From contig JBFLWW010000006.1 in the NCBI GenBank assembly GCA_040757475.1, positions 622-64,621 of the forward strand: a DNA stretch of 64,000 nucleotides, written 5' to 3'. Position 1 is the first letter of the stretch. The number at the start of each line of letters is the position of its first letter. Below are positions 1 through 60,873 of this stretch, in pieces. The notes beneath the pieces were generated by a model. The model was not told where the DNA came from. It did no database searches and was given only the letters and a program-made list of their open reading frames with translations. This stretch comes from Nitrospirota bacterium. Its GTDB lineage: Bacteria; Nitrospirota; Thermodesulfovibrionia; Thermodesulfovibrionales; SM23-35. The position numbers were made by a program, and so were the translations under genes.

Positions 1-156
1 AAGATGGGATTAAGACCAATACTCGACCTCGATTTAAGGCTTGGTGAAGGCACAGGAGCCGCTCTCGCAATGCTCATGATTGAAGCAGGGCTTAAGATTT
101 ACAAGGAGATGGCGACCTTTGGAGAGGCAGGAGTGTCGAAAAAGAATAACCAATAA
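1..156 (+). CDS. cobT: Nicotinate-nucleotide--dimethylbenzimidazole phosphoribosyltransferase CobT, 3' end (partial at window edge)
   Basis: Frame 1 is open from base 1 to TAA at 154-156. It translates to ...[36 protein letters not shown], which looks like a CobT C-terminus. cobS and cobC follow. Confidence 0.75.
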
Positions 157-232
157 CCAAATCACAATAACCAGACATTTTGGAATTTGGTCATTGGAAT
201 TTATTTGGTTATCGGTGCTTGGTCATTGGAAT
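145..232. repeat. Two oppositely oriented heptamer arrays: (AATAACC)n at 145-172 and (TTGGNNN)n at 180-232
   Basis: Left array reads aataacc aataacc aaatcac aataacc. Right array reads ttggaat ttggtca ttggaat ... ttggtta tcggtgc ttggtca ttggaat. ttggtta is the reverse complement of taaccaa. Confidence 0.8.
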
Positions 233-237
233 TTAAT

Positions 238-1026
238 ATGAGACAATTGCTTCTTGCAATTCAGTTTCTTACGATTATACCGATAAGGATGAATATATCG
301 GTTAGCGAGGCTGATATTGCAAGAAGCTCGTCTGCCTTTGTAGTGGTCGGACTTTTTCAGGGCCTATTGCTTATAGCTACAGACTATGTATTCGGTATGG
401 TCTTTCATCCTGACCTTGTTATAGGGATAATCCTTCTTGTGCTTGTCTTATCTAATGGAGGATTTCATCTCGATGGGCTTGCAGACACCTTTGATGCCAT
501 TGCAGCAAGAGAAGATAAGGAGAAAAAACTCTTGATAATGAAGGACGGGACAACAGGACCAATTGGTGTAATAGCGATCGTTTTCTCACTGGCTATAAAA
601 TATCTCGCTTTAAAGAATTTATCACATTTTTTGACCTTTACTTACTATTTATCCCTTTTTCTAATGCCAATATTATCGAAATGGGCAATGGTTATAGCAA
701 TGTTTTATGGTAAACCAGCGAGAGAAAATGGACTTGGAAGGATTTTTATAAACAGAATCGGGTTAAAAGAGATTGCTGTTTCCACCTCGATACTACTTTT
801 GTGGTTAGTATTACCGCTGATACTCTTCAGCCAATATGTATCAAAAAGCCAGTATATTTTTTATACGGTTTTACTGTTAGTGCTATATATATTCAGTCGT
901 GTATGGGTCAATTTCTTCGATAAAAAATTTTGCGGTCTTACTGGAGATACACTCGGTGCAATCAGTGAGATTACTGAAATAATCTTTTTATTAATGGTGA
1001 TTACATGGTCACGACTCTTTATCTAA
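238..1026 (+). CDS. cobS: Adenosylcobinamide-GDP ribazoletransferase (cobalamin synthase)
   Basis: Lies in ORF 187-1026. ATG at 238 gives MRQLLLAIQFLTIIPI... with HLDGLADTFD and a polytopic membrane profile. The upstream part of the ORF is heptamer-repeat DNA. Confidence 0.85.
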   Translation: MRQLLLAIQFLTIIPIRMNISVSEADIARSSSAFVVVGLFQGLLLIATDYVFGMVFHPDLVIGIILLVLVLSNGGFHLDGLADTFDAIAAREDKEKKLLIMKDGTTGPIGVIAIVFSLAIKYLALKNLSHFLTFTYYLSLFLMPILSKWAMVIAMFYGKPARENGLGRIFINRIGLKEIAVSTSILLLWLVLPLILFSQYVSKSQYIFYTVLLLVLYIFSRVWVNFFDKKFCGLTGDTLGAISEITEIIFLLMVITWSRLFI

Positions 1027-1595
1027 TAAGACATGGACAGATCCTCTACCACGACGAGTGGAGATTTACAGGACATCTGGATATTGAAATGGATGAGATA
1101 GGTATCAGCCAGTTATATACAATAGCGGATCATCTATCAAGATATACAATCAGGGCTGTTTACTCAAGCGATTTAAAGCGTTCTTTAAAAGGTGCAGCGA
1201 TAATTGCAAGGAAATTGAATATTAGCTTACTTATTAATCCATCCTTCAGGGAGCTTTCCTTCGGGGAGTGGGAAGGGTTGAAGATAGAAGAGATTTCAGA
1301 AACTATACCTGATGATTTAACCGATTTCAGATTCGGCGGAGGGGAGACGATCAGAGAACTTCAACAACGGGTTATCTCCGCTCTAAAGGGAATCATAACA
1401 AGGCACAAGGGTGAAGGGATAGCGTTAATTGGTCATGGCGGTGTAAATAGAGTCATCTTACTCGATGCCCTCCGCATGGAACTAAAAAACTTTTACAGGA
1501 TAAAGCAGGAGTATGGATGCCTGAATATCATCGAGTATGCAGACGATGGATTTGCATCTGTGAGATTAATAAACGGAGGGCCGAATTTAGAATAA
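1005..1595 (+). CDS. cobC: Alpha-ribazole phosphatase / histidine phosphatase family
   Basis: N-terminal LYLIRHGQ (RHG motif) and later IGHGG. Overlaps the cobS stop and sits in a cob gene context. Confidence 0.75.
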   Translation: MVTTLYLIRHGQILYHDEWRFTGHLDIEMDEIGISQLYTIADHLSRYTIRAVYSSDLKRSLKGAAIIARKLNISLLINPSFRELSFGEWEGLKIEEISETIPDDLTDFRFGGGETIRELQQRVISALKGIITRHKGEGIALIGHGGVNRVILLDALRMELKNFYRIKQEYGCLNIIEYADDGFASVRLINGGPNLE

Positions 1596-1603
1596 GGGGG
1601 TTT

Positions 1604-2371
1604 ATGCCCAGAACATTGATGATACAGGGGACTGGCTCAGGAGTAAGCAAGAGCTTTATTGTTGCGGGTCTCTGCAGGATACTGAGAGACATGGGGATTA
1701 ATGTTGCACCTTTTAAGGCACAGAACATGGCATTGAATTCTTTCATAACAAGAGAGGGCGGTGAGATAGGCCGTGCGCAGGCGCTTCAGGCAGAGGCAGC
1801 AAGGATTGAGCCTTCAGTGGATATGAACCCGATATTACTGAAGGCATCAGGCGAGACAGGCTGTCAGGTGATTATTAATGGCAAAGTCCATTCGAACATG
1901 AAGGCAACGGAGTATTATCTCTTCAAGAAAGAGGCATGGATTGCTGTAACTCAGGCTTATGAAAGGTTATCAAAAAGACATGACCTTATTGTCATTGAGG
2001 GTACAGGAGGCCCTGCAGAGATTAACCTTATGGATGACGAGATAGTTAATATGAGGGTTGCACGCTATGCAGATGCACCTATAATCCTTGCAGGAGACAT
2101 CGATAAAGGAGGGGTCTTCGCATCTTTATATGGGACAATAGAGCTTTTAAAGGATAGTTCAAACAGTTTATGTGATGCTGATTATATCAAGGCATTCATA
2201 ATCAATAAATTTAGAGGAGACATATCTATCCTTAACCCAGGACTTACTATGATACATGAAAAAACAGGTAGGCCTGTTATCGGAGTAATCCCATACCTTG
2301 GTGACCTCGGACTTCATGAAGAAGATGGGATACCTCTTGAAAGACTTAAGGGTTCAAGGGTTCAAAAATAA
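1604..2371 (+). CDS. cobQ: Cobyric acid synthase CobQ/CbiP, N-terminal ATPase-like part (split gene)
   Basis: ATG at 1604 gives MPRTLMIQGTGSGVSKSFIVAGLCRIL..NVAPFKAQNMALNS, a typical CobQ N-terminus. The frame ends at TAA 2369-2371, just after an 8-nt tandem duplication. Confidence 0.8.
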   Translation: MPRTLMIQGTGSGVSKSFIVAGLCRILRDMGINVAPFKAQNMALNSFITREGGEIGRAQALQAEAARIEPSVDMNPILLKASGETGCQVIINGKVHSNMKATEYYLFKKEAWIAVTQAYERLSKRHDLIVIEGTGGPAEINLMDDEIVNMRVARYADAPIILAGDIDKGGVFASLYGTIELLKDSSNSLCDADYIKAFIINKFRGDISILNPGLTMIHEKTGRPVIGVIPYLGDLGLHEEDGIPLERLKGSRVQK

Positions 2372-2379
2372 AGATCGTA

Positions 2380-3135
2380 GTGGTGCAATTGAGATATATT
2401 TCTAACTTCACAGACTTTGACACCTTTATGTATGAGCCTGATGTTGAATTGATTTATTCTCTGCGGGATAGAGATATTGAGAGCGCTGACTTAATCATCA
2501 TTCCTGGCTCTAAGAATACTATGAAAGACCTCCTATTTCTGAGAGAAAATGGTATAGAAGAAACCGTAAAAAGGACAGTAGAAAAGGGAATCTCGCTCAT
2601 AGGCATCTGTGGCGGCTATCAGATGCTCGGGGGAAAGATATATGACCCATTCAATGTAGAAAGCATTCATAAGGAGGTGGAAGGATTTGGGCTTCTTGAT
2701 ATAGAAACAACAATTCAAAATACAAAAATAACATCCCAGGTAGAAGCCCCCGTTATCCCTCACCGTTTTCCGTTTGCCGTCACGGACAACGGACACGAAT
2801 CACGACTAAAGGGCTACGAGATTCATATGGGTGAGACAACAGGCGATATTGGTTTGTTCAGTCTTTCACGCCTCACGCCCTACGATTCACGCCTAACGGT
2901 TATCATGGATGGTTCTGCAAAAGGCAATGTCGGGGGAACTTATATTCATGGAATATTTGATAATGACCGATTCAGACGTAGCCTCATAAATTCTTTACGG
3001 GTTAAAAAAGGATTAAAACCAACAGAAGCAACTGTGGATTATTCAAAATTAAGGGACAATGGTATCAATAGATGGGCAAAGATATTAAAGGAGAGTATAG
3101 ATTTGGCGTTTATAGAAAGACTCATAAGGATTTAA
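2380..3135 (+). CDS. cobQ: Cobyric acid synthase CobQ/CbiP, C-terminal glutamine amidotransferase part (split gene)
   Basis: This frame is open from 2350. It reads ...KIVVVQLRYISNFTDFD, GICGGYQMLG and YIHGIF, matching the type-1 GATase domain of CobQ. Confidence 0.8.
   Translation: MVQLRYISNFTDFDTFMYEPDVELIYSLRDRDIESADLIIIPGSKNTMKDLLFLRENGIEETVKRTVEKGISLIGICGGYQMLGGKIYDPFNVESIHKEVEGFGLLDIETTIQNTKITSQVEAPVIPHRFPFAVTDNGHESRLKGYEIHMGETTGDIGLFSLSRLTPYDSRLTVIMDGSAKGNVGGTYIHGIFDNDRFRRSLINSLRVKKGLKPTEATVDYSKLRDNGINRWAKILKESIDLAFIERLIRI
2761..2809. repeat. Heptamer array inside cobQ
   Basis: caccgtt ttccgtt tgccgtc acggaca acggaca cgaatca cgactaa. The ccgt and acgg halves are complementary. Confidence 0.7.
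2865..2899. repeat. Heptamer array inside cobQ
   Basis: ttcacgc ctcacgc cctacga ttcacgc ctaacgg. Confidence 0.75.
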
Positions 3136-3136
3136 G

Positions 3137-4189
3137 ATGGAGCAGACCACTCAATATTTTTACTCATTACTTACTACTAATTACTCATTACTGGTTCTTG
3201 CCTACTTCCTTGACATCGCTATTGGAGACCCGAAGTGGCTCCCTCATCCTGTAAGGATTATGGGCAGGGCAATAACATCGCTTGAAGATTTCCTAAGATT
3301 TAGTATACAGAGCATAGAGCAAGGAGCCAAGAGCAAAGAAAACTTTGAAAAACTGGCAGGGGTTTTTCTCGTTATGGTTATAATAGGTCTTACTTATGGC
3401 TTATCTTATATTATTGATTCAGCACTTCTTACTTCCCACTTCTCACTTCTCACCTCTTACTTTTCACTCTTAGTGATGGTTTATCTAATATCAACCACAC
3501 TGGCAACGAAAGGGCTTATAGACTCTGCACGCACTGTAATAGAGGCTTTAAAGAGCAGAAATATCGAGGCAGCACGAGAAAATCTCCATCACATTGTGGG
3601 CCGAGACACAGATTCACCTGATGAGAAAGGCGTGCTCAGAGCAACAATAGAAAGCCTTGCTGAGAATGCATCCGATGGAATAATAGCACCGCTTTTTTAT
3701 TTTGCAATTGGAGGTCTACCATTAGCAATGACTTATAAGGCAATAAACACAATGGATTCTATGGTCGGCTATAAAAATGGAAGATACAGGTATTTTGGCT
3801 GGGCAGCAGCAAGGCTCGATGATATCGCCAATTATATCCCTGCAAGGATAACAGGTGTATTGGTTGCTACGGCGTCCTCTATCCTCAACTGGTCACTAAA
3901 AATAATGCTTCGTGATGGCAGAAAACATCCAAGCCCAAACAGTGGTGTGCCTGAGGCTGCGATGGCTTGCGCCCTTGGGATAAGGCTCGGAGGGTCATCG
4001 ACATACGGAGGGATAGTGGTTAATAAACCATATATCGGCATAGATAAGTCAGGAGTCAGCCCTGAATCAAGTTCAGGGCAGGAGTTACTTTTAAGTACTT
4101 CTGAAACAGCCATCTCTGTTGTTAAGCTCACTTCTGTCCTTGGACTTGGGCTTTCAATAATATTTCAGTATGTGAGGATTATGATATGA
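3137..4189 (+). CDS. cbiB: Adenosylcobinamide-phosphate synthase CbiB
   Basis: LDIAIGDPKWLPHPVRIMGRAI and NASDGIIAPLFYFAIGG are CbiB/CobD-family motifs. The protein looks membrane-bound. Confidence 0.85.
   Translation: MEQTTQYFYSLLTTNYSLLVLAYFLDIAIGDPKWLPHPVRIMGRAITSLEDFLRFSIQSIEQGAKSKENFEKLAGVFLVMVIIGLTYGLSYIIDSALLTSHFSLLTSYFSLLVMVYLISTTLATKGLIDSARTVIEALKSRNIEAARENLHHIVGRDTDSPDEKGVLRATIESLAENASDGIIAPLFYFAIGGLPLAMTYKAINTMDSMVGYKNGRYRYFGWAAARLDDIANYIPARITGVLVATASSILNWSLKIMLRDGRKHPSPNSGVPEAAMACALGIRLGGSSTYGGIVVNKPYIGIDKSGVSPESSSGQELLLSTSETAISVVKLTSVLGLGLSIIFQYVRIMI
3157..3191. repeat. Heptamer array at the cbiB 5' end
   Basis: tttttac tcattac ttactac taattac tcattac. Confidence 0.7.
3423..3471. 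repeat. Heptamer array inside cbiB (7 units)
   Basis: cacttct tacttcc cacttct cacttct cacctct tactttt cactctt. Encodes LLTSHFSLLTSYFSLL. Confidence 0.85.
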
Positions 4190-5274
4190 AATTCGAGCAT
4201 GGTGGAAACATCTACAGGCTTGCAGAAGAACTTAAGATACAGGAAAGAAAGATAATAGATTTCAGCGCATCCATAAATCCTCTCGGTGTATCGAAAAAGA
4301 TAAAGGCAGAGATACGGAAACACTTGAAATATCTCCATAACTACCCTGACCCTGAGGCAAAAAGATTAAGGAAGTATCTTGCTCAATACCATGGAATCGA
4401 CCCTGAGACAATTCTCTGTGGAAATGGAAGCACCGAACTCATTTATCTGATAATAAGGGCATTAAAGCCTCGAAAAGTTCTTATACCAGCACCAACATTC
4501 TCAGAATATGAAAGGGCATGCAAAATAAGTAACGAGTTACAAGTTACGAGTTACGAGTTAAAACAAGCAGATAATTTTGATATAAATCCTGACGAGTTTA
4601 TCTCTTCACTCCTCACTCCTCACTCCTCACTGCCATGCGACATGGCCTTTCTCTGTAATCCCAATAATCCAACAGGAAGATTACTCAAAAGAGAGGATGT
4701 CGAAAAGATTGCAGATGCAGCAAAAGAGCTTAAATGTTATCTCATTGTTGATGAAGCTTTTATAGACTTTTGCTCTGGAGATTCAATGATAAACAAAGTC
4801 CAGAATAATCCTTACCTTATTGTCTTAAGGTCTATGACAAAATTTTATGCCATTTCCGGTTTAAGGATTGGATATGGTGTATTCCCTCAGCATCTCATCC
4901 ACAGGCTGAAAGAGTATAAAGAACCATGGACGGTAAACAGCCTTGCACAGAGGGCAGCAGTGGTGGCACTTAAAGACAAGGTGTATAAAAATGAGACATT
5001 TAAATTGATGAGAGAAGAGAAAAGATTTCTTGAAAAGGGTTTTAAGAGATTGGATATAGAATTTTCCCCTTCCGATACTAATTTCTATCTTCTTAAACTG
5101 AGTAATGCAAAAAATGCAAAAGAGGTATATCAGAGACTGAAGAAGAGGGGTATACTTCTAAGGGATTGCTCTAATTTCAGAGGTCTTGGGGATACATTTT
5201 TAAGGGTTGCTGTAAAATCCCATAGGGAAAATACAATTTTATTAAAAGAGCTTACAGCGATACTACAGAGTTGA
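4186..5274 (+). CDS. cobD: L-threonine-O-3-phosphate decarboxylase (class I/II aminotransferase fold)
   Basis: MKFEHGGNIY...IDFSASINPLG, CNPNNPTG and SMTKFYAISGLRIGY. ATGA overlap with cbiB and a cob gene context. Confidence 0.8.
   Translation: MKFEHGGNIYRLAEELKIQERKIIDFSASINPLGVSKKIKAEIRKHLKYLHNYPDPEAKRLRKYLAQYHGIDPETILCGNGSTELIYLIIRALKPRKVLIPAPTFSEYERACKISNELQVTSYELKQADNFDINPDEFISSLLTPHSSLPCDMAFLCNPNNPTGRLLKREDVEKIADAAKELKCYLIVDEAFIDFCSGDSMINKVQNNPYLIVLRSMTKFYAISGLRIGYGVFPQHLIHRLKEYKEPWTVNSLAQRAAVVALKDKVYKNETFKLMREEKRFLEKGFKRLDIEFSPSDTNFYLLKLSNAKNAKEVYQRLKKRGILLRDCSNFRGLGDTFLRVAVKSHRENTILLKELTAILQS
4527..4561. repeat. Heptamer array inside cobD
   Basis: aagtaac gagttac aagttac gagttac gagttaa. 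Confidence 0.85.
4606..4633. repeat. Heptamer array inside cobD
   Basis: tcactcc x3 then tcactgc. Read in three frames it gives SLLTPHSSLP. Confidence 0.85.
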
Positions 5275-5344
5275 AAATGGCAAATGAGATGCAGAATATA
5301 AAGACAAGAGATTATGGGGAGGGAGGTGAGAATAGATTTAGAAT

Positions 5345-5575
5345 TTTACTCTATGCTGGCTGGAAGTCAGGGAAGAGGAGTGAGATGCTCCCGCTGCCCC
5401 GCAGCCGTGAAGGGAACGAAAGCCCATAAAACAGTGAATAGTGATTAGTGAATGGTGTCTTTCTAACAACTAAACACTAAAAACTAACTACTGTTTTAAA
5501 ACCACTGGTGGTTTAAAAATCATTGGGAAGGTGGGTGAGTAGATTGTCCTGAGCCGGAAGACCTATCCAGACCTT
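5345..5575 (+). promoter_or_regulatory. Cobalamin (B12) riboswitch
   Basis: GGGAAgaGGaGTGaGAtgCTCCcGCTGCCCCGCAgCcGTGA, then CCACTGGTGG, GGGAAGGTGG and the B12-box-like GAGCCGGAAGACCT. It lies directly upstream of a TonB-dependent receptor and after the cob genes. Confidence 0.85.
5434..5492. repeat. Heptamer arrays within the riboswitch variable region
   Basis: gtgaata gtgatta gtgaatg gtgtctt ... aacaact aaacact aaaaact aactact. Confidence 0.75.
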
Positions 5576-5658
5576 AGAAGTTCACAAACCAAAAATTCTC
5601 GAGGGAGGAAAAAATGAAAGAAAATTTCAAATTTCAAATTATTAAAAATTATCTGCAT

Positions 5659-5700
5659 TTCATTACTTGTCACCTGTCACTTGTCACTTGTCACCTCTCT
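5659..5700. repeat. Heptamer array in the signal-peptide region of the btuB-like gene
   Basis: ttcatta cttgtca cctgtca cttgtca cttgtca cctctct. Units at 5680-5686 and 5687-5693 are identical. Confidence 0.85.
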
Positions 5701-7498
5701 ATTTGCAGAAGAAAAAATAAAACTGGAAGAGGTAGTCGTTATTGTAACGAGGATAGAAGAGGCGGCTGAGGAGACGACAAGCGATGTTGTAGTAATTAAG
5801 GCTGAAGATATAAAAAAGATGAATATCCAGTTTGTGACAGATGTCTTGAGAAAGATTCCAGAGCTAAATCTTATCCAGAGTGGAGGCGCGGGGAAATTAG
5901 CTACAGCCCTCTTGCGCGGTGGTGATTCAACCCATACCCTTGTGATGATAGATGGAGTAAAGGTCAAAAGCACAACCACAGGCTCATTCGATTTTTCAGG
6001 TATCAATGTGGATGACATTGAAAGGATTGAGATAGTAAAAGGACCACAGAGTACCTTCTATGGTTCAGAGGCAATGGCAGGGGTCATAAATATCATCACA
6101 AAGAAGGAAGAAGGTAAGCCAAAGATAGATGTATCTTTTGAGTCAGGCGCATACGGAATGTATAAACCATCCCTGACAGTGTCAGGTGGGAATAAAAAAT
6201 TAGACTACAGACTCACAGGAACATATTTTTATACCGATGGCATATCAGCCGCAAAGCAAGGCACAGAGAAGGATGGATATAAAAATACCTCTATCTCAGG
6301 AAAATTCGGGTTTAGACCAGTCGAGAGACTGGAGTTAGAACTCTCAGGTAAATATTATTATGACCGTTCTGAGCTGGATTTCGGCACAGATAGGGACGAC
6401 CCAAATTATATTCAACGCGAGAATCATTACATTGTTTCTGGCAAGGGAAAATTTTATCTGATAGATATATGGGAACAGATTTTGACTCTTTCAACAGTTA
6501 AGGACATTCTAAAAGTTAGAGACCCTGATGACACTTTGGGATGGTATAGCTCTGATATCACTACAGGTGTAGACATAATTGATTGGCAACATAATCTTTA
6601 TATTTCAGATAGTTATACATTAACAGCAGGTATGGAGTATAGAAAAGAGAAAGGAGAAAGCATTGAATCGCCTACAGGAGTATTACGGTTTGACAAGTCT
6701 ATAGATAATAAAGCCCTGTATCTCAACAATAAGCTAAAGCTCTTCAAAGAAGATGTTGTATTTAATGCTGGTTTGAGATATGACGACCATGAGACATTCG
6801 GCAGTAAGACAACTTACAGAATTGGAGCAGTATACAATATCAAGCCTGCAGCATTGAGAATCAAAAGCAGTTATGGAACAGGCTTTAGGGCACCAACACT
6901 TAATGAGCTCTTTTATCAGGACCCATGGGGCAGTAGCGGAAATTTAAATTTAAGGCCTGAAAGATGCACTTCATGGGAAGTCGGCGTTGAAAAAGATATC
7001 ATTAAGCTTGCAATAATCAGCCTGACATATTTCAATCAGGACTATAAAGACCTCATTCAATGGGTTGAAGTAGCTCCATGGACATGGCAGCCACAAAATG
7101 TCGTAAAAGCTAAGATAAAGGGTATTGAGGCAACTGCCAGCCTCAAGGTAACAGAGAGTCTTAGCGTAAAAGCAGGCTATACTTACTTAGATACAGAAAA
7201 CAGGGCAACAGGCAGGAGGCTTTTAAGAAGGCCAGAGGATAAGTTTAATATCTCCGCCAGACTTTCGGATAAGAAATACTCCTTCATCGCTGATTATACA
7301 TTTGTAGGAAAGAGAGACGATTCCCAAACAAAACTTGCTTCCTATAGCATGGTTAATCTCAGTGGAAGCTATAATATAACAAAGACCCTGATTCTTTTTG
7401 CGAGGGTTGAGAACCTACTTGATGAAGACTATGAAGAGGCTGGCGGCTATGGAACGCCAGGACTTTCCATCTTTGGAGGTATCAGAATATCTCTTTAA
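5681..7498 (+). CDS. btuB: TonB-dependent outer-membrane receptor, BtuB-like (5' end unresolved)
   Basis: Plug-domain motifs (VVVIVTRIEE.., LLRGGDSTHTLVMIDGV, IEIVKGPQSTFYGSEA) and a C-terminal barrel ending ...GGIRISL. It sits behind a B12 riboswitch. The only ATG with an SD (5614; GGGAGG at 5603-5608) is one nt out of frame. The listed start is a TTG with no signal peptide. Confidence 0.8.
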   Translation: MSLVTSLFAEEKIKLEEVVVIVTRIEEAAEETTSDVVVIKAEDIKKMNIQFVTDVLRKIPELNLIQSGGAGKLATALLRGGDSTHTLVMIDGVKVKSTTTGSFDFSGINVDDIERIEIVKGPQSTFYGSEAMAGVINIITKKEEGKPKIDVSFESGAYGMYKPSLTVSGGNKKLDYRLTGTYFYTDGISAAKQGTEKDGYKNTSISGKFGFRPVERLELELSGKYYYDRSELDFGTDRDDPNYIQRENHYIVSGKGKFYLIDIWEQILTLSTVKDILKVRDPDDTLGWYSSDITTGVDIIDWQHNLYISDSYTLTAGMEYRKEKGESIESPTGVLRFDKSIDNKALYLNNKLKLFKEDVVFNAGLRYDDHETFGSKTTYRIGAVYNIKPAALRIKSSYGTGFRAPTLNELFYQDPWGSSGNLNLRPERCTSWEVGVEKDIIKLAIISLTYFNQDYKDLIQWVEVAPWTWQPQNVVKAKIKGIEATASLKVTESLSVKAGYTYLDTENRATGRRLLRRPEDKFNISARLSDKKYSFIADYTFVGKRDDSQTKLASYSMVNLSGSYNITKTLILFARVENLLDEDYEEAGGYGTPGLSIFGGIRISL

Positions 7499-7566: not shown

Positions 7567-8460
7567 TTATAGAATGCTACTGAATCTTTCTATTGACTTG
7601 ATTATCATATCTCTCGCATCCTTATCAAATAATATTTGTGCATGGTTAAATCCAAAATTGTGGTGTTCATTGCACCAGGGAATCCTTGAGCTCTCTGCTG
7701 ATACCAGACCATCTCCTTTTCCCTTTTTTATTTCTTCAGGATAAAGATTTTTAGGAACCACCTTCTCTAAGACCTCGGGTATAGAGAAATTGTAAAGACT
7801 GAAAAGCGTCGGGTCTGTACCTCCAACTGAGATATAATATACACCATCAAGTGGTCCGTCCTTCAAGGATCTTAAAAAATACGATCCAGGAAGAAGCTCT
7901 TTAAGTGCCTTACTCTTGAGAAAATCAATGACCCGCCTTATTGTAAAGGAAAGCGTGCCTTTATCACCATACGGGAAAAGAGGACCTATTACAGAAACAA
8001 GTGGAAATAAATAATTGGCAATCCTGGCTATAGAACTCCCCTTGTGGGGTGTGGAAATCGTTACAAGACCTCGTATTGACCTATCTTTTCTCAGGAGATA
8101 CTTCCTTCCAATAAGTCCACCTCTGCTATGGCCGATGAGCACAATACCAGCCCTTGTTATCTTATTCGCAATCCTCACAATCTCCTTTAATTCTGAGACA
8201 GCAGAATCTATTGGCCCTGCAGGCCTTTCCTGAGTCCATGTTATTACAGTATAATTTTTAAGCCTGAGGTCTTCGAAGAGGGTCTTCAGTGTTTTCATAG
8301 AAGGTCTTTTCCTAAGAATGGAAGTCAGAGGAAACATTCCTCCGAGAATGCGAGAGTTAGAAGGATTCACCCAGATATTTTTATCCATGCCAAGGCCGTG
8401 TATAAAAATAATAGCAGGTTTGTCAACGCTACCTTCATGGAATTCAATATCAAGATTCAT
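7567..8460 (-). CDS. Alpha/beta-fold hydrolase (lipase/esterase-like)
   Basis: IFIHGLGMD (oxyanion region) and the GHSRGG nucleophile elbow. Confidence 0.65.
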   Translation of the reverse strand: MNLDIEFHEGSVDKPAIIFIHGLGMDKNIWVNPSNSRILGGMFPLTSILRKRPSMKTLKTLFEDLRLKNYTVITWTQERPAGPIDSAVSELKEIVRIANKITRAGIVLIGHSRGGLIGRKYLLRKDRSIRGLVTISTPHKGSSIARIANYLFPLVSVIGPLFPYGDKGTLSFTIRRVIDFLKSKALKELLPGSYFLRSLKDGPLDGVYYISVGGTDPTLFSLYNFSIPEVLEKVVPKNLYPEEIKKGKGDGLVSAESSRIPWCNEHHNFGFNHAQILFDKDARDMIIKSIERFSSIL

Positions 8461-8563
8461 AGCCTATTATATTCTTGTAACCTCCACCATGCAAAATAAT
8501 TTCATGACTGTCTAATTAAGCAAGCCTCAAACTTAGAATTTATAGGTTATCTAAAGTTACAAC

Positions 8564-8593
8564 TTGAAAAAATAACCCTCCATTTTTTATACT
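8564..8593 (+). promoter_or_regulatory. Candidate sigma70-type promoter
   Basis: TTGAAA at 8564-8569, an 18-nt spacer, then TATACT at 8588-8593. About 70 nt upstream of the CGGC gene. Confidence 0.3.
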
Positions 8594-8663
8594 TTATCAG
8601 TTTTTTAGCCCCAGTGTGCCGAAAACTATTTGATTTTAAAAGATATTTTGAAAGGAGGTTTTT

Positions 8664-9032
8664 ATGCCAAAGAAGAGGATAGCAATAATAGCATGTAAAA
8701 ACATCAGAGGCATTAGCTGTGCGGGTGGCTGCCTGAAATGCTTCAAGGCAATGGCAGAAAAGGTAGGGGAGTTTGAGCGATGGAAAGATTACGATATAGA
8801 GGTAATTGGCATGGATGATTGTGGAGGTTGCCCTGGTGTAGTAATACCAAAGGTAAAGCTTATGATGGAGATGTGTAAATTATATGAGAGAAATGTAGAT
8901 GCCATTCACCTGGGAACATGTATAAAAATGGCTACAGGAACAGCAGAGTGCCCGATCGATATTGAGAAGCTTAAAATATTAATCGGAGAGAAGTTCCAGA
9001 AAGAGGTAATCCTGGGGACTCACCTTTATTGA
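8664..9032 (+). CDS. CGGC-domain protein
   Basis: Cys-rich protein (CKNIRGISCAGGCLKC, DDCGGCPG) of small size, consistent with the CGGC family. Strong SD (AAAGGAGG). Confidence 0.6.
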   Translation: MPKKRIAIIACKNIRGISCAGGCLKCFKAMAEKVGEFERWKDYDIEVIGMDDCGGCPGVVIPKVKLMMEMCKLYERNVDAIHLGTCIKMATGTAECPIDIEKLKILIGEKFQKEVILGTHLY

Positions 9033-9033
9033 A

Positions 9034-10290
9034 GTGCACAGATCGATGAACCGGGATTGGGATACAAAAGAAAAATTTATCACAGACATAAATGAATGGA
9101 AAAAGAAATTTCCGGTCATCCATGAATTTGTTGTTAGCGATAACGGCGAGAAAATATCTGCTGTTGTTGAGATAGCAGATAAAAAGGTAGCCCCATGTAT
9201 AAATGGAGTAGCATGGGGAAATACCTTTGAAAAGGCATGGTCACTCAGATTTACCCCTGATAATCATCTGGCATGTTTGGTATTACGAGATTATGAGTGG
9301 ACTGTAGCTATTGATGAAAAGTCATGGGAAGAAAAATTTGATTTTGCATGGGATATGAGGCTAAGCCCTGATGGAAAGAGCATCGCAGTAAATATAAAAA
9401 AGGATGATAGATACGGAGTTTCCTTAAATGGCAGGACATGGGAAAATAAATTTTTTGGTGCAAAGGATGTTGTTATCAGTCCTGATGGAAAGAGGACTGC
9501 ATGCTGTGTAAAGACAAAAAATCCTGGTGCACTGGATATCTTTGGTTTTTCTGAAGGAATTCTCAGCATTGCAGTAGATGGAAAGCCATGGGACAAAAAT
9601 TTTTTAAGCACCACGGGAATTACATTCAGCTCTGATGGCAATAGAGTAGCAGGAGGTGTAAGGTTAGATCGTTCGATATTCACGGTTGCAGTAGATGGAA
9701 ACTTGTGGGGAGAAACCTTTGCCGGTATATGGGAGCCAGTCTTCAGACCCGGAAGTGACGATGTAGTTGCCCCAGTGAAAACAGATAAGGGCTGGACCCT
9801 CGCAATGAATGGGATGCCATTCTGGAACCGGAATTTTAATCAGCTCTGGAATCAGAGATATAGCCCGGATGGACAGAGGATAACAGCTATTGTTGCTACT
9901 GACTTCGGTAAATGGACAGTAGCGGTGGATGGCACTGCATGGAAGAGGACATTCGGTGCAGTCTTCTCTCCGGTATTCAGTCCAGATAGTAAAAGGGTTG
10001 CAGCTATTGTCAAAGAGAACAATAGATGGACAATTGCTGTGGATGGCACTACATGGGAAAAGGATTTTGACATGATATGGGAGCCTGTTTTCAGCCCTGA
10101 TAGTGCTAAAGTGGCAGCTAAGGCTGAAATAAATGGCAGGTTTGTTGTTGTAATTGATGGCAGGATTGGGAGATATAAGTTCGATACACTCTGGAATCCT
10201 GTTTTCAGTCCAGATGGAGAGAAACTATTAATAAGATGTATCGAGGAGGGGAGATATTATCGTCGGGTAGTGCCGATAGATGAAATCTAA
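9034..10290 (+). CDS. Repeat protein, probable beta-propeller (about 9 repeats of ~40 aa, W..F...W.P.FSPDG)
   Basis: The recurring motif ...W(E/G)..F...W.(P/L).(F/S)SPDGK..A is visible along the whole ORF. It resembles PD40/TolB-type or WG-type repeats. No signal peptide. Confidence 0.55.
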   Translation: MHRSMNRDWDTKEKFITDINEWKKKFPVIHEFVVSDNGEKISAVVEIADKKVAPCINGVAWGNTFEKAWSLRFTPDNHLACLVLRDYEWTVAIDEKSWEEKFDFAWDMRLSPDGKSIAVNIKKDDRYGVSLNGRTWENKFFGAKDVVISPDGKRTACCVKTKNPGALDIFGFSEGILSIAVDGKPWDKNFLSTTGITFSSDGNRVAGGVRLDRSIFTVAVDGNLWGETFAGIWEPVFRPGSDDVVAPVKTDKGWTLAMNGMPFWNRNFNQLWNQRYSPDGQRITAIVATDFGKWTVAVDGTAWKRTFGAVFSPVFSPDSKRVAAIVKENNRWTIAVDGTTWEKDFDMIWEPVFSPDSAKVAAKAEINGRFVVVIDGRIGRYKFDTLWNPVFSPDGEKLLIRCIEEGRYYRRVVPIDEI

Positions 10291-10293
10291 ACA

Positions 10294-10971
10294 ATGTATG
10301 AATCCCTGACAGGCTCTTCAGTATATAACTTCGTAAGAGGCCCCCTCATATGGGCCTCATTCATTATCTTTATCGGAGGGAGTCTTTATAGAATAATCTC
10401 TGTTCTCTCTCTGGCAAAGAAGGATAAGATAGTTTATCCCTATATGAGTTTAAAATATAGCCTGCGTTCCATCCTCCACTGGATTATCCCGTTTGCAAGT
10501 ACTAATATGAGAAAACGCTCCACGATAACTACTGTAGCCTTCCTTTTTCATATCTGCCTGATTCTCACACCTGTATTTCTTATTGCACATAATACCCTCT
10601 GGTACGAATCATGGAAGATAAGGTGGTGGACTATATCTGAAGTAATGGCAGACATAATGACACTGACAGTTATATTCTGTTCTCTCTTATTACTTATAAG
10701 AAGAATCACCTCACCTGAGGTCAGGTTTGTTACCTCTACTTCTGACTATATCATGCTTGCGATTGCTACTGTGCCATTTATCACTGGATTTCTGGCACAT
10801 CATCAATTATTTCTTCCATATAAACCTATGGTAATACTTCACATCCTCTCGGGAGAGATTATGCTGATAACTATACCTTTTACACGATTAAGCCATATGT
10901 TCTTTTTCTGGTTAACACGGGCATATATGGGTTCGGACTTTGGCGCTGTTCGGCACTCAAAAGACTGGTGA
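10294..10971 (+). CDS. hmcE: NarI/DsrM/HmcE-like membrane b-type cytochrome subunit
   Basis: 225-aa polytopic membrane protein with conserved His in TM helices. It directly precedes an HdrD/DsrK-like Fe-S protein. Confidence 0.6.
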   Translation: MYESLTGSSVYNFVRGPLIWASFIIFIGGSLYRIISVLSLAKKDKIVYPYMSLKYSLRSILHWIIPFASTNMRKRSTITTVAFLFHICLILTPVFLIAHNTLWYESWKIRWWTISEVMADIMTLTVIFCSLLLLIRRITSPEVRFVTSTSDYIMLAIATVPFITGFLAHHQLFLPYKPMVILHILSGEIMLITIPFTRLSHMFFFWLTRAYMGSDFGAVRHSKDW

Positions 10972-20764: not shown

Positions 20765-20929
20765 TTAACCCTTTAACCCTGCTATGAGCAGAAGAATTCC
20801 TGCCACTGCAAAGCAGATAAATCCCACCGCAGGGTTTATAGCTATCCCCCCTATCAGCATAAGAAACACCGATAGCCCGATGAGAACCTTTGGATCCGAC
20901 ACATTCGGGTTTAAGCTTGATTTAGTCAT
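20765..20929 (-). CDS. Hypothetical small membrane protein (54 aa)
   Basis: GGAGGCGGAA precedes the ATG at 20929. Product MTKSSLNPNVSDPKVLIGLSVFLMLIGGIAINPAVGFICFAVAGILLLIAGLKG has two hydrophobic helices. Below the ORF-track length cutoff, with no family support. Confidence 0.3.
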   Translation of the reverse strand: MTKSSLNPNVSDPKVLIGLSVFLMLIGGIAINPAVGFICFAVAGILLLIAGLKG

Positions 20930-36363: not shown

Positions 36364-36393
36364 GTATAAAGGTATCAGAGATGAGGATAAAGG

Positions 36394-54360: not shown

Positions 54361-54396
54361 TCGCACTCCCAATTTATTAGTTTGTAGTATAAAGAC

Positions 54397-55704: not shown

Positions 55705-55742
55705 TACTGTCTTACTCGTCACTCATCACTTATCACTGCTTA
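55701..55742. repeat. Heptamer array filling the argC-argJ junction
   Basis: tcattac tgtctta ctcgtca ctcatca cttatca ctgctta. Confidence 0.8.
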
Positions 55743-56786
55743 CGGGAACATTGCTATTGTATCGAGGGCTGTTTTTTCATCAAAGCCCATCATGATATTC
55801 ATGTTATGTATTGCCTGTCCTGATCCGCCTTTCATGAGGTTATCTATTGCAGTGACAATGATGAGGGTATTTGTTCTCATATTTACGGTCAGCCCAACCT
55901 CACACATGTTTGTCCCCCGCACATTTTTAACATTAGGTGACCTCCCCTCATCAAGAACCTGTACAAATGGCTCTTTGGAGTATGACTTTTTATAGACCTC
56001 TATAATCTTTTCCATACTGATATTTTTTGCAAGCCGAAGCCGTGCATATATGGTTGTAAGTATCCCCCTGTCGAGCGGTGCAAGGTGTGGTGTAAAATTA
56101 ATTTTTATATCCTTTCCTGCTATAGCAGAAAGCTCTTGTTCAATCTCAGGTGTGTGCCTGTGTGATGCGACTGCATATGCCTTGAACCCCTCATTCACCT
56201 CGCAATATGAAAATGTAATATCTGACTTCCTCCCCGCACCACTTGTGCCTGATTTTGAGTCTATAACAATTGAGCTAACATCAATGAATTCATTTTTTAT
56301 TGCAGGATATAATCCGAGGATTGCACCTGTTGGGTAGCATCCAGGGTTGGCAATGAGATTTGCCTCTGCAATTTTTTTTCTGTAGAGCTCCGGGAGACCG
56401 TAAACAGCCTTTTTCAGGGTTGTTTGAAATTTATGTGGCACCTTATACCATTCTTCATATATCTTTGTATCTCTGAGCCTGTAATCAGCAGAGAGGTCAA
56501 TAACCTTTTTCCCATGTTTAAAAAGAAAGTCTACTGCCTCTTGTGACCTTCCATGTGGGAGGGCCATGAAAAAGAGGTCTGCCTTATCGAGGATATCTCC
56601 AACTTTTAACTGTTCATATGTGAGGTTCGAGTGTCTGTAAAGATAGGGGAAAAGGTCGCTTACATATTTCCCTGCGGATTTTTCTGATGTGACCGCTGTA
56701 ACTGTAACTTCAGGGTGATTTAAAAGAAGGCGAAGTAATTCACCTCCTGTATATCCACTACCACCACATATGGCAACACGAATCAT
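55740..56786 (-). CDS. argC: N-acetyl-gamma-glutamyl-phosphate reductase
   Basis: MIRVAICGGSGYTGGELLRLLLNHPEV and NPGCYPT (active-site Cys). Confidence 0.9.
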   Translation of the reverse strand: MIRVAICGGSGYTGGELLRLLLNHPEVTVTAVTSEKSAGKYVSDLFPYLYRHSNLTYEQLKVGDILDKADLFFMALPHGRSQEAVDFLFKHGKKVIDLSADYRLRDTKIYEEWYKVPHKFQTTLKKAVYGLPELYRKKIAEANLIANPGCYPTGAILGLYPAIKNEFIDVSSIVIDSKSGTSGAGRKSDITFSYCEVNEGFKAYAVASHRHTPEIEQELSAIAGKDIKINFTPHLAPLDRGILTTIYARLRLAKNISMEKIIEVYKKSYSKEPFVQVLDEGRSPNVKNVRGTNMCEVGLTVNMRTNTLIIVTAIDNLMKGGSGQAIHNMNIMMGFDEKTALDTIAMFP

Positions 56787-56880
56787 AGTGACGAGTCACA
56801 AGTTACGAGTAACGAGAAGTTTAAAAGTATGAGGTCTTCAGTTTTTAACTTGTCACTTGTCACTTGTTACTCGTTACTAT
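56787..56880. repeat. Two oppositely oriented heptamer arrays between rpsI and argC
   Basis: Left arm: agtgacg agtcaca agttacg agtaacg. Right arm: cttgtca cttgtca cttgtta ctcgtta. The arms are partly complementary (for example acgagtaac with gttactcgt). Confidence 0.8.
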
Positions 56881-56882
56881 TT

Positions 56883-57707: not shown

Positions 57708-57767
57708 CCCTTCACCTTTTTATTGAAATTAAGTATTGGATAAGATAATAGAATTATTAAAGAATTG

Positions 57768-59879
57768 TCAACATTCAGCAGCAGACAGTTTTGAAAAGTC
57801 TGCAATGGATGAAGCTGCCCTCCAGATCTCTTTGAGTAATGCCAGTCTGTTTTGCCTCATCTCTTCCCGCTTATCCATCACAAGGACATGGTCAAAAAAA
57901 TGGTTAATTGGCTCTGTCAATGAAGAAAGGGTATTGATTGCATCATAATACTTCCCGTCTTTAAGAAGAGCTGCGACATTGGATTTAACTGAGTCGAGTT
58001 TTTCTTTGAGTCTCTTCTCAGGTTCTTCTATCAGGAGCTCGGCTTTTAATTCAGGAATTACTATCTCTGGAATTATATTATTTACACGCTTTATTGCAAG
58101 TAGAAAGTTATTATATCCTCTGTCCTTTTTGAATTTCTGTATACCATCGAGCCTTCCCCTTATCTCTTTTAATGGCACATAGCCTGAGAGTGAAAGGACT
58201 GATTGGATTAGATCGGATGCATAACCATCTGCTGAAAATACGGATTCAAATCTCTGTCCAAAAAACTGCATTATATTTTTCTCTGCATCTGCTGAGCCAT
58301 TTATATGTGAGAGATTATTGAGTGCTTTATCTACGAGTTCTTTTAATGTAATGCTATAACCCCTGTTTAATATTATCGCTATGACTCCGAGTGCCTGTCG
58401 CCTCAGGGCAAAAGGGTCTTCAGAGCCTGTAGGTGTAAGCCCTATAGAAAAGAATGAAGCTATGTTGTCTATCTTATCAGCTATGCTGAGAATCGCTCCA
58501 ACTTCTGTCTGTGGAAGTCTTCCACCCGAATGTGCTGGCAGATACTGCTCTCTTATTGCTTCTGCAATTTTGCTGTTTTCTCTGTCACGAAGAACATAGT
58601 ATTTCCCCATGATTCCCTGCAGCTCAGGAAATTCCCTGACGATGCCTGTTATAAGGTCTGTTTTTGAAAGCCATGCAGCACGAATGAGCTTATCTTTTGC
58701 TGAAGGCAGAAGCCTATTCGCAAGAAATCCTGCAATAGAGACTATCCGTTCTGTTTTTTCATAGAGATTCCCGAGCCTGTCATGGAATGTAACCTTCCTG
58801 AGCTCCTCTATCCTTTCAGAGAGCGGTTTTTTTCTGTCATCCACAAAATAGAACCTCGCATCTTCAAACCTTGCCTTTATGACTCGTTCGGCACCAATCT
58901 TCATTGTCTCTGCATTTTCTTCCCTTGTATTGCTGATAATGATAAAATGGTTAATTAGTTTGCCCTCTCCGTCTTCTATAGCAAAGCATTTCTGATACTC
59001 TTTCATGACAGTAATGAGTAGTTCTTTCGGCAGCTCCAGATACTCTTCTGAAAAACTGCATAGCACAGGGACAGGATATTCAACAAGAAAATTGACCGTC
59101 TCTATTAGTTCCTCGTCTTCTATGGGTCTTCCGCCTGCTACATCAGAGAGCTTTCTGATACCTTCAAGGATTATCTTCCTTCTTTCTTCCTGGTCAAGTA
59201 TTACATAGTTATTTTTGAGAAGATTTATGTAAGCTGATATCTCCTTTACCTGGAATGGAGCAGGAGAGAGAAAACGATGTCCTCTTGTTGTATTAGCGCT
59301 CGTTATTCCATCAATCTCAAAATGGATAACATCCTTATCAAACATGGCTAATACCCAGTGTATCGGCCTGGCAAACCTTATGCTTCCGTTTCCCCATCTC
59401 ATGGTTTTCGGAAAGTTTATGGAAAGAATGACTTTCTTTAATATTTCTGGTAGAAGGTCCTTTACAGTCATTCCTTTCTCTTCAAACACTGCAACAACAT
59501 ATTCGCCTTTGTCCCTTCTCTTTACAATAAGACCCTCTACATTTATCCCATGAGAGTTTGCAAACCCTATTGCTGCCATTGTCGGATTACCTTTGTTATC
59601 AAAGGCCACTTTTTTTGCAGGGCCGAATATCTCCCTTACGCGATCAGCCTGCACCTCTGGTAATCCAGTAATGAAAAGCGAGAGCCTTCTCGGTGTTGCA
59701 TAAACCTTTATCTCTGAAAAATCAATACGGGTTTCTTTTAAGATTGTGGCGGTATTTTCTTTTAAGCTCTGGATTGCTCGTGGCAGAAACCTTGCTGGTA
59801 TTTCTTCTGTGCCAATCTCAAGCAAAAGTGAGGAGTGAGAAGTGACAAGTGAGGAGTTATCCCTAACTTTCTGATTCAT
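57768..59879 (-). CDS. glyS: Glycine--tRNA ligase beta subunit
   Basis: [14 protein letters not shown].. and 703 aa. ATGA overlap with the glyQ stop. The N-terminal ~17 aa are repeat-encoded. Confidence 0.9.
59826..59860. repeat. Heptamer array in the glyS 5' end
   Basis: aagtgag gagtgag aagtgac aagtgag gagttat. Confidence 0.8.
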
Positions 59880-60793
59880 ATCTCTCTTTCATCCTTTGAA
59901 CTTTTAACTTTCAACTTTTCACTTTTAACTTTTAAGAGTGGGAATCCCATCTCTTCCCGCTGTTTGTAATATGCCTCTGCACAGAGCTTTGCAAGATTTC
60001 TTACACGTGCAATATACCCTGTCCTTTCTGTGACAGAAAGGGCGCCTCTCGCATCGAGCAGGTTAAAGATGTGTGAGCACTTTAAACAGAATTCATAAGA
60101 TGGAAGTACAAGACCGAGTTTATTGAGTCTGAGCGACTCTTTTTCGTATGCCTCAAACTGTCTTATAAGGAGTCCTGCATCGGCATAATCAAAATTATAC
60201 TTTGAGAATTCTACTTCACTGATATGATGTATTTCCCCATATTTTATACCCTTACACCATTTAAGGTTAAATACATTATCCACCTCTTGCAGATACATAG
60301 CAATCCGTTCGAGTCCATATGTTAGTTCAAGTGACACTGGCTTGAGGTTAATGCCTCCAACCTGCTGAAAATAGGTGAACTGGGTTATCTCCATCCCGTC
60401 GAGCCATACCTCCCATCCGAGACCCCATGCACCGAGTGTGGGGGATTCCCAATCATCCTCTACAAATCTGATATCATGTTTGAGCAGGTCTATACCTAAA
60501 TAAGAAAGGCTTTCGAGATAGACTGCCTGACTATCTGACGGAGATGGTTTCAGAATGACCTGGTACTGATAGTAGTACTGAAGCCTGTTTGGATTTTCTC
60601 CATACCTTCCATCAGTTGGCCTTCTTGAAGGTTCTACATATGCGGTTTTCCATGGTTCTGGCCCCAGAACCCTGAAGAATGTAGCAGGATGGAATGTCCC
60701 TGCACCTACCTCCATGTCGTATGGTTGAAGGAGGACACAGCCTTTTTTTGACCAGAACTGATTAAGTTTTAAAATCAAATCCTGAAAATACAC
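59876..60793 (-). CDS. glyQ: Glycine--tRNA ligase alpha subunit
   Basis: [39 protein letters not shown] at 60793 with an upstream GGAG is the likely start. The track ORF extension to 60862 is heptamer-repeat DNA. Confidence 0.9.
59898..59939. repeat. Heptamer array in the glyQ 3' end
   Basis: gaacttt taacttt caacttt tcacttt taacttt taagagt. Encodes the tail [13 protein letters not shown]. Confidence 0.8.
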
Positions 60794-60803
60794 AACAGAC
60801 TCC

Positions 60804-60873
60804 GTTAACCAAATAATAACCAATAACCAATTACAATAACCAAATAATAACCAATAATTCAATAATTCATTAC
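60804..60873. repeat. (AATAACC)n-type heptamer array in the glyQ / oxidoreductase divergent intergenic region
   Basis: gttaacc aaat aataacc aataacc aattac aataacc aaat aataacc aataatt caataat tcattac. Same unit as at 145-172. Confidence 0.8.

Follow-up and report, generated by a model that had tools for sequence, protein, structure and literature searches.

The window analysed here, a stretch of 64,000 nucleotides (contig C6:622-64621), belongs to a 1.74 Mb metagenome-assembled genome (MAG) of the Thermodesulfovibrionales (53 contigs, 41% GC, 96% complete), the nearest public relatives of which are Nitrospirota/Thermodesulfovibrionales MAGs with 95% identity in the one conserved protein compared. 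The window opens with cobS, cobQ and cobD, followed by an aminotransferase gene, a cobalamin riboswitch and the gene of a B12 receptor, and further on holds genes for a CHASE2/cyclase protein, a tetratricopeptide repeat (TPR) protein, ArgJ and GlyQ. In and between these genes lie short tandem arrays of 7-nt or, less often, 8-nt units, many of which pair as the two arms of a hairpin and which are the subject of this report. A preliminary description of the window had listed 18 arrays, located inside enzymes, in a signal peptide, in a riboswitch and at gene ends, and all of these arrays and contexts were indeed found. Specifically, Tandem Repeats Finder (TRF) recovered 16 of them, each at the listed start or a few bases from it (145, 2866, 3160, 3423, 4528, 4602, 5433, 5668, 27273/27298, 29597, 29881, 55714, 56848, 59826, 59894 and 60806), and the remaining two, at 180 and 2761, lie under its threshold and are seen in the sequence as degenerate arms that pair with a neighbouring arm (140-235, z = -1.7; 2755-2810, z = -2.3).

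The genome-wide scan that the preliminary description had called for revealed an enrichment far above expectation, the latter being derived from the same TRF scan of a third-order Markov copy of the genome. Across the whole genome, 625 period-7 rows were obtained, 459 of which had at least 3.5 copies where 3 were expected, together with 65 period-8 arrays where 1 was expected; as the counts for periods 4, 5 and 10 were close to expectation, the excess is specific to period 7-8. Perfect heptamer repeats of 3, 4 and 5 copies occurred 55, 50 and 10 times, with 0 expected. The heptamer arrays use 149 distinct units at a median copy number of 4.4, being short (~4 copies) and mostly imperfect, and the total of ~570 arrays of 7-8-nt units makes up ~1% of the DNA, as estimated from counts and median length.

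Of the 498 heptamer arrays with 3 or more copies, placed on a crude, non-overlapping map of open reading frames (ORFs), 198 were internal to ORFs, 76 lay no more than 30 codons into the longest ORF, 75 straddled an ORF end, 14 lay near a C-terminus and 135 were intergenic. Junctions are therefore enriched several-fold, since intergenic DNA amounts to only ~8% of the genome on this map, and 40% of the arrays are inside ORFs, i.e. translated. ORF-internal arrays are most often 30-32 nt long (one unit plus three), and the lengths of intergenic arrays are broadly distributed. Between 37000 and 55000 of the window, in ~18 kb of exported-protein and lipoprotein genes that all point the same way, there is no heptamer array of at least 3 copies, where the genome average would predict ~5; the nearest one lies at 36380. 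This stretch might be recently acquired DNA.

Despite their number, the units follow a common rule. The consensus NNNT(C/T/A)AC, which had been proposed from the window, was borne out by the aligned ORF-internal and intergenic units: in the sense strand of the 198 ORF-internal arrays, rotated to a common register, the unit reads NNN-T(85%)-C(77%)-A(93%)-C/A, and the intergenic units keep the same NNN-T-x-A register, using TTA and TAA as well. TCA is present in 121 of these 198 units, compared with 31 of 198 random stop-free heptamers. With 7 = 1 mod 3, successive copies of a unit pass through all three frames, as had been noted before and as is seen in the SSLLTPHSSLP of the aminotransferase, and a strand with TGA consequently cannot code, which explains why the sense strand carries TCA and not TGA. 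Arrays at operon junctions (MrdA/RodA, MurC/MurB, PrfA/PrmC, AroK/AroB and FabF/Rnc; for example C1:113072-113165, C2:61234-61278 and C11:38002-38019) supply the codons for the end of one protein and the beginning of the next, and are 1-2 units away from a false gene fusion in automated annotation.

The preliminary description, correct as to the repeats, their consensus and their locations, had missed that the arrays form hairpin arms and that looped families are dispersed over the genome. Among 120 array pairs at most 40 nt apart, 90 (75%) had units complementary in at least 5 of 7 positions, as opposed to 17% of random pairs. Moreover, 49% of all arrays fold mostly with adjoining sequence, compared with 16% when the flanks are replaced by random genome DNA. 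The 5′ arm is purine-rich in 80 of the 90 complementary pairs (66% vs 34% purines), over 75 distinct unit-pair types and in coding as well as non-coding DNA, and since the polarity of a palindrome is independent of the strand read, this reflects a true structural rule. Within the window (Table 1) the hairpins at 5428-5498 and 56786-56880 are the clearest, followed by 2755-2810, 140-235 and the 8-nt pair at 29923-30018; the arrays at 2866, 3160, 3309, 3423, 29597, 55714 and 60806 are solo in the fold analysis.

Such an architecture might in turn indicate that the elements serve the host as terminators, mRNA stabilisers or RNase III sites, or as arrays bound by a nucleoid, cold-shock or regulatory protein. 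The purine/A-rich 5′ arm and pyrimidine/T-rich 3′ arm resemble bidirectional terminators, and array density reaches 1.28 per kb of intergenic DNA at co-directional junctions, as opposed to 0.43 at divergent ones. However, when RNA parameters are applied, 58 of 78 pairs are more stable as the antisense strand than as the sense transcript, and RNA-level selection for a sense hairpin was rejected on that ground; the advantage of the antisense strand is probably a by-product of stop-codon avoidance, through which the GTGA arm becomes mutated on the sense strand. Over the 120 array pairs, the antisense fold averages 5 kcal/mol better than the sense fold.

Table 1. Arrays and hairpins of the window, followed by bracketed PF05635 genes of relatives (positions are those of the window unless a locus is named).
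Feature	Position	Strand	Context and remarks
AATAACC x4.1 (145-173) and degenerate GGTTAT/TTGGTCA-type partner arm (180-235)	145-235		Before cobS; fold -11.5 kcal/mol, z = -1.7; probably mostly upstream of the true cobS start, since the Pfam CobS match begins at residue 24 of the ORF starting at 187
8-nt array AAGGGTTC x2.2	2348-2365	+	Break between cobQ ORFs 1517-2371 and 2380-3135
CCGTTTN/ACGGACA hairpin (2761-2805) and TCACGCC x4.7 (2866-2898)	2761-2898	+	CobQ amidotransferase domain; TCACGCC array of the same length in G001
TTACTCA x4.7	3160-3192	+	CobD N-terminus
AGAGCAA x4.4	3309-3339	+	CobD loop
CACTTCT x6.6	3423-3468	+	Hydrophobic CobD segment LLTSHFSLLTSYFSLL
GAGTTAC-type (4528-4560) and TCCTCAC (4602-4631)	4528-4631	+	Class I/II aminotransferase; read KISNELQVTSYEL...SSLLTPHSSLP; pair folds weakly
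AGTGAAT x3.6, loop, CTAAAAA/ACTAAAC x3.6 hairpin	5428-5498	+	In cobalamin riboswitch; -10.5 kcal/mol, z = -3.2
AAATTTC x2.7 (5622-5640) and TGTCACC x4.1 (5668-5696)	5614-5700	+	Signal-peptide region of TonB-dependent receptor
8-nt array CTTTAACC x3.2	20755-20780		Intergenic
8-nt arrays GACACGGA x2.9 and ATTCACCG x3.8	27273-27327	+	Near C-terminus of CHASE2/cyclase protein; weak pairing, z = -0.9
AATGGTG x4.4 (29597-29630) and AACAGTA-type (29881-29917)	29597-29917	-	In/before TPR protein ORF
8-nt inverted pair GAAGTTGA x4.6 / TATCTTCT x6	29923-30018	-	In/before TPR protein ORF; arms pair in fold
GATGAAG x3.9	36380-36405		Gene junction
ACTCATC x3.4	55714-55737		argJ start
Complete type C element: AGTRACRAG arm, 34-nt loop GTTTAAAAGT...AGTTTTTAAC, TYGTCAC arm	56786-56880		DNA fold -19 kcal/mol, z = -4.3; 0/200 shuffles fold as well
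AAGTGAG x4.6 and CTTTTAA x6.0	59826-59935	-	Junction of ORF 57768-59879 and glyQ (59876-60862)
AATAACC-type arrays	60806-60869		5′ end of glyQ; probably in leader or N-terminus, since the Pfam match begins at residue 26 of the ORF
PF05635 gene within arms	L228 1389-1853		Relative G030
PF05635 gene within arms	L235 1426-1871		Relative G007
PF05635 gene within arms	L237 1104-1550		Relative G014

Several hairpins recur at unrelated loci as complete elements. In the dominant construct, (GAGTWAC)x4 is joined by an A-rich loop to (TYGTCAC)x4; it recurs in ORF-internal pairs, where it is translated as VTSNELRVTSKEKDLSLVTRHSSL and where the alternation of A and T holds TAA out of frame. The units of its two arms share the palindromic core GTNAC, which recurs every 7 bp and the conservation of which would also suit a protein-binding array. 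A subfamily (referred to as type C) carries the 34-nt loop GTTTAAAAGTCTNAAGTCTTYAGTTTTTAAC and is present in 13 copies in the genome, with loops ~90% identical, unrelated flanks and termini that read AGTNAC at the start and GTNACT at the end of the aligned copies; further copies with this loop were found in the genomes G001, G030, G023 (full length, 76% identity) and G003. Another family is AT-rich and consists of (AAAATTC)n, a GGAATTC-like loop and (AATTTTG)n; it numbers 12 copies or more, the majority of them at gene junctions. Whole elements, and not units alone, are copied between loci.

These looped copies bear directly on a purely mutational origin, in which replication or repair prone to 7-nt slippage would amplify heptamers in place and template switching would produce hairpins, without any movement. 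The wealth of different units speaks for such a process, as do the more than 10-fold enrichment of two-copy duplications in intergenic DNA and the fact that typical arrays overrun whole units by 2-4 nt, an overhang that is not demonstrated as a direct repeat and that would fit slippage between short homologies; an excess of heptamers in bacteria is, moreover, already known (PMC4692102, PMC4679880). However, the notion that arrays arise in place and share only their unit fails on a non-repeat loop common to 13 loci and four other genomes, and the multi-copy elements, because they carry conserved non-repeat loops, point to more than local slippage. The strong unit consensus and the polarity of the arms argue in the same direction, as do AT-rich arm words in a 64% GC genome of another phylum (see below) and the intact MutS and MutL of this genome and its congener. 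Since the shared loops and the AT-rich units in a GC-rich genome make pure local slippage insufficient, we consider it unlikely as the general explanation.

The behaviour of the arrays was followed over 200 kb aligned between this genome and its congener G001 (88% identity). Of the orthologous intervals with an array in either genome, 65 out of 78 differ in length. For coding array sites the proportion is 25 out of 34 (74%), as opposed to 31 out of 3000 (1.0%) control intervals of 90 nt, and 24 of these 25 coding differences are multiples of 3. Unit steps of 7 nt are seen in non-coding DNA and exact steps of 21 nt (3 units) in coding DNA, as in the CobD N-terminus, where the TTACTCA site of G001 is exactly 21 nt (7 aa) shorter and holds 1.4 copies versus the 4.7 found here; this site by itself looks like the local amplification or contraction that slippage would produce. 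That coding changes are multiples of 3, and often 21 nt, suggests that only stop-free in-frame versions survive in genes.

Besides copy number, the units themselves are exchanged. At the AGAGCAA site of CobD, G001 holds CATCACT x5 instead, with a length difference of 6 nt; at another site, one species carries (AGTCAGA)5...(CTCGTCA)4 and the other an 8-nt pair; and at a third, where TCGTCAC stands against TCCGAAC, all four units have changed between the species. Different unit families at one site sometimes even have equal total length in the two species. Presence/absence cases, all in frame, comprise a 120-nt palindromic insert that is read within a conserved protein in this genome and faces an empty site in the orthologue of G001, and 45-87 nt extra in G001. 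The aminotransferase arrays differ by +84 and +24 nt in G001, with a GC-rich palindrome. The riboswitch element, a 67-nt insert that interrupts the Rfam RF00174 match (5344-5585) between model positions 107 and 108, is longer in G001 by one unit (7-8 nt, depending on the alignment).

G001 also holds a second, GC-rich palindrome family, CCCTCCCCCTCGAGGGGGAGGG, translated as PPTHPSPSRGEGEGGG, which stands in frame at heptamer-hairpin sites or nested in their loops (L119 19006-19156, L138 4219-4360 and L066 8552-8724). The frequency of the CCCTCCCCCTCGAGGGGGAGGG 9-mer is ~53 per Mb in G001 versus 5 per Mb in the present genome.

Two changes of unit number have apparently broken a reading frame, and both of these lesions of the window strike cobalamin genes. 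In cobQ, G001, with four 8-nt units, keeps a single intact ORF; the present genome, with two units, is 16 nt shorter and has a frameshift and a stop at 2369-2371, and the Pfam matches for its ATPase and GATase_3 halves fall on different ORFs. The second of these begins with GTG 9 nt past the stop (window 1517-3135). The split may represent a pseudogene or a variant within the population, or else the enzyme may consist of two polypeptides. In the btuB-like B12 receptor gene, which sits downstream of the cobalamin riboswitch, G001 reads in frame from the ATG across both signal-peptide arrays, while here 12 + 2 = 14 nt (~2 units) are missing at and just after the first array. The ATG at 5614, with its strong GGAGG site, does not share the frame of the receptor ORF (5681..7498), which still encodes the signal-peptide-like KKISNFKLLKIICISLLVTCHLSLVTSLFA followed by EE, without a canonical start.

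Frame breaks of this kind might suggest contingency loci, in which the number of units acts as a phase-variation switch. The unit length is no multiple of 3, an outer-membrane B12 receptor put out of frame by a 14-nt loss in its signal peptide is a classic phase-variable kind of gene, and the cobQ split stems from the loss of two 8-nt units. However, the affected genes examined are mostly housekeeping (CobD, ArgJ, GlyQ and the MurC/MurB and MrdA/RodA junctions), and the arrays are short and imperfect. Furthermore, a genome screen singled out 20 sites at which a shift in copy number by 1-2 units would join two adjacent ORFs, and the 12 candidates inspected were ordinary adjacent genes (MrdA/RodA, MurC/MurB, PrfA/PrmC and AroK/AroB among them) with no further split gene. 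True breaks thus appear rare, cobQ being the sole confirmed split gene. The receptor gene may be subject to phase variation, but the bulk of the arrays are not explained in this way, and for them we hold it to be quite improbable.

The distribution of the arrays was examined in relatives sampled at 17-244 kb each, density being the number, per 100 kb, of heptamer arrays with 3.5 or more copies. It amounts to 59.6 in G030, 29.1 in G001, 26.3 in the present genome and 24 in G007, to 6-11 in G013, G014, G016, G024, G023 and G003, to 1-3 in six further genomes and to 0 in nine. The complete lack of arrays in close relatives, and the fact that site content and length are not conserved even between congeners, make a host function hard to reconcile with the data, as do the arrays within ORFs of housekeeping enzymes, in spite of similar stems that enclose 23S-IVS-protein (intervening sequence) genes in relatives; a role in termination, RNA stability or protein binding therefore seems rather unlikely. 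An artefact of assembly or binning, which a short-contig MAG of 53 contigs might raise as a concern, is practically negligible as an explanation: the arrays keep reading frames open, they recur at orthologous sites in independently assembled relatives and in the complete single-contig genome G024 (~8 per 100 kb), and at ~30 nt they stay below the usual read length.

Loss of mismatch repair was considered as a cause and rejected, as MutS1 and MutL are intact in both the present genome and the array-rich G001. Both proteins are undetectable in G030, which has the highest density, and in G014, which has a moderate one (93% and 97% complete, respectively), so that there is no simple relation with mismatch repair.

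Beyond the Nitrospirota, an exact search with three units of each main-family arm returned 27 metagenome contigs of 40-67% GC, with 83 heptamer arrays per 100 kb. One of these, WNFV01008432.1 (L171; 64% GC, 13 period-7 TRF rows in 12 kb), is Roseiflexaceae-/Kouleothrix-like Chloroflexota by GatA, and a second one, of 40% GC, is Azobacteroides-/Dysgonomonadaceae-like Bacteroidota by IspG, both taxa being taken from the names of the best protein matches. WNFV01008432.1 further shows heptamer arrays inside a 1094-aa MutS (7621-10905) and an ACTGGGG x5 / CCCAATC x4.4 pair (1766-1838). The type C loop had no exact match in viral contigs, a ground on which a phage vector was rejected, and none in the JGI metagenomes, where the arm pattern does match.

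Based on these observations, we believe that the arrays are probably selfish, dispersed hairpin repeats, the arms of which change by unit slippage or conversion and which are filtered by frame and stop codons. The arrays would be the arms, or solo arm remnants, of a large mixed population of small hairpin elements, an arm being built of an NNN-T(C/T/A)A-N unit of 7 nt (in the rarer case 8 nt) that is repeated ~4.4 times in tandem, and the dominant family being (GAGTWAC)n-loop-(TYGTCAC)n. Whole elements are copied to new loci, mainly to gene junctions and to sites already holding an element, and a resident hairpin may well attract new ones. The arms would then gain or lose units or be replaced from other copies, leading to fast turnover and to the concerted change of all units; the turnover itself was observed, and slippage or gene conversion is its presumed mechanism. 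Selection would keep stop-free, in-frame versions inside genes. A change of 1-2 units could, by simple arithmetic (7 = 1 mod 3), break or restore a frame, and an occasional one breaks a gene, as in the split cobQ and the out-of-frame B12 receptor. The elements are accordingly regarded as selfish or neutral DNA, and not as a coding or regulatory system of the host.

A number of observations weigh against this view of mobile, selfish hairpins. Roughly half of the arrays have no detectable partner arm, many may be products of local slippage given the 149 distinct units, and some are old and conserved across genera, so that not all are dynamic: the CACTTCT array of CobD, which is present with point changes in both G001 and G030, is old and retained. 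Gene starts on the ORF map are uncertain. The 13 aligned type C copies revealed no target-site duplication, conserved target, terminal cleavage motif or common flank or tag, and no autonomous partner for the elements was identified in the present genome.

Two candidate partners were considered. A Y1/HUH transposase gene occurs in 10/10 array-rich genomes, and the six genomes without it have at most 3 arrays per 100 kb, yet nine array-poor genomes possess the gene as well (Fisher p = 0.05), and the two Y1_Tnp genes of the present genome (C33, C27) have no flanking arrays. As a mobiliser, a Y1/HUH (IS200/RAYT-like) transposase was therefore rejected and remains a weak lead only. The second candidate, PF05635, comprises the 23S-IVS protein, which to our knowledge is not a known transposase and which we take to be a small four-helix-bundle protein related to the Avd proteins of diversity-generating retroelements. 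Its genes are bracketed by inverted heptamer arms in 3/3 inspected relatives (Table 1), and its absence from the present genome led us to reject it as the gene of a partner element. In favour of mobility, the five sampled relatives without a Y1 gene and without a 23S-IVS-protein gene are also array-free, a pattern that fits arrays travelling together with the mobile elements that a genome carries.

Reports of heptamer repeats in bacterial genomes go back to 1990, and their over-representation was shown in 2007. The likeness to the short tandemly repeated repetitive (STRR) heptamers of heterocystous cyanobacteria that had been drawn from the window proved apt, given the 7-nt units, their genome-wide over-representation and the whole-unit copy-number changes relative to G001: both systems consist of short dispersed tandem 7-nt arrays with several unit types per genome. 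TTGGTCA, which we take to be the STRR2 unit (AATGACC/GGTCATT by rotation or complement), is used by 8 arrays of the present genome, and ACTGGGG, presumably the complement of STRR1, stands beside the GAGTAAC/TCGTCAC family on the Chloroflexota contig; the STRR unit sequences are reportedly those of Mazel et al. from 1990. Unlike STRR, which are described as mainly intergenic and cyanobacterial, the arrays lie to 40% within ORFs of a Nitrospirota host, comprise 149 unit types, are joined in inverted pairs in about half of the cases and include looped elements dispersed as wholes.

Rickettsia palindromic elements (RPEs) are small selfish palindromes that lie in frame in protein genes and are translated as extra loops. 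The elements described here resemble them as in-frame palindromic inserts, whereas RPEs form 100-150-bp families without tandem-unit arms, and we know of no report of a 7-nt periodicity or of unit-number dynamics in RPEs. Repetitive extragenic palindromic sequences (REPs) and REPINs, built from them, share with the present elements short imperfect palindromes that often stand in inverted pairs, the lack of a target duplication, a high copy number and vertical persistence at sites; REPs flank the gene of their REP-associated tyrosine transposase (RAYT). According to PMC3733652, REPs lie outside genes and are marked by a GTAG or CGTC tag. Here, in contrast, many copies are intragenic, no tag is found at the 13 aligned copies and the Y1 genes are unflanked. 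Non-autonomous cut-and-paste transposons of the MITE kind would be matched by the terminal inverted repeats (AGTNAC start, GTNACT end) but not by the lack of a target duplication at those 13 copies and of an autonomous partner in the genome.

In architecture, the closest system is that of Geobacter metallireducens, with about four units per arm, inverted pairs, and positions in and between genes. It comprises four-copy heptanucleotide elements within and between genes, as well as other classes of 3-5 tandem 7-9-nt repeats, octamers included, paired on opposite strands (PMC2700814). The Geobacter units GGACCGG, GTTGCTYN, TCTCCGTS and MTYCTGA differ by eye from those found here, and the elements number tens of copies as opposed to hundreds. 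They were proposed to be regulatory RNA or binding sites for integration host factor (IHF) or HU, and turnover or cross-phylum data are not part of that report (PMC2700814). TAACTGA repeats of Beggiatoaceae, some Cyanobacteria and Bacteroidetes occur as hundreds of sets of 2-6 copies, with a patchy cross-phylum spread that suggests horizontal transfer and an orientation for which a stop-codon logic was discussed (PMC4679880). While TAACTGA (complement TTATCAG) fits the NNN-TCA-N rule of the present units, these repeats have one dominant unit, are nearly all intergenic and form 169 direct sets versus one indirect, and a regulatory role in the 5′ untranslated region was proposed for them (PMC4679880). 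The over-representation of heptameric repeats and the idea of a polymerase footprint (Mrazek et al. 2007) are summarised in PMC4692102 and PMC4679880. In the papers searched, no description of repeats like these was found for Nitrospirota or Chloroflexota, and the arrays are best read as an extreme, in-gene variant of STRR-like repeats.

More speculatively, and with considerable doubt, all of these could belong to one cross-phylum class of mobile hairpins with heptamer-periodic stems, of which the long forms would carry a PF05635 gene and the short forms would be the gene-less hairpins of the present genome. STRR, the Beggiatoa TAACTGA repeats, the Geobacter heptamers, the in-gene hairpins described here and the intervening sequences of rRNA would then be of one kind, spread via a single-stranded or RNA hairpin intermediate.

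As to practice, the arrays disturb gene calling in MAGs, affecting starts and ends and giving rise to false fusions. The question of the origin of heptamer repeats is made testable by the unit rule, the fixed arm polarity, the looped dispersed copies, the occurrence in three phyla at 40-67% GC and the site-specific hyper-turnover. For the organism itself, the finding means that essential enzymes tolerate, and continually exchange, repeat-encoded loops, through which proteins vary in length and a gene is now and then inactivated, as seen here in two cobalamin genes.

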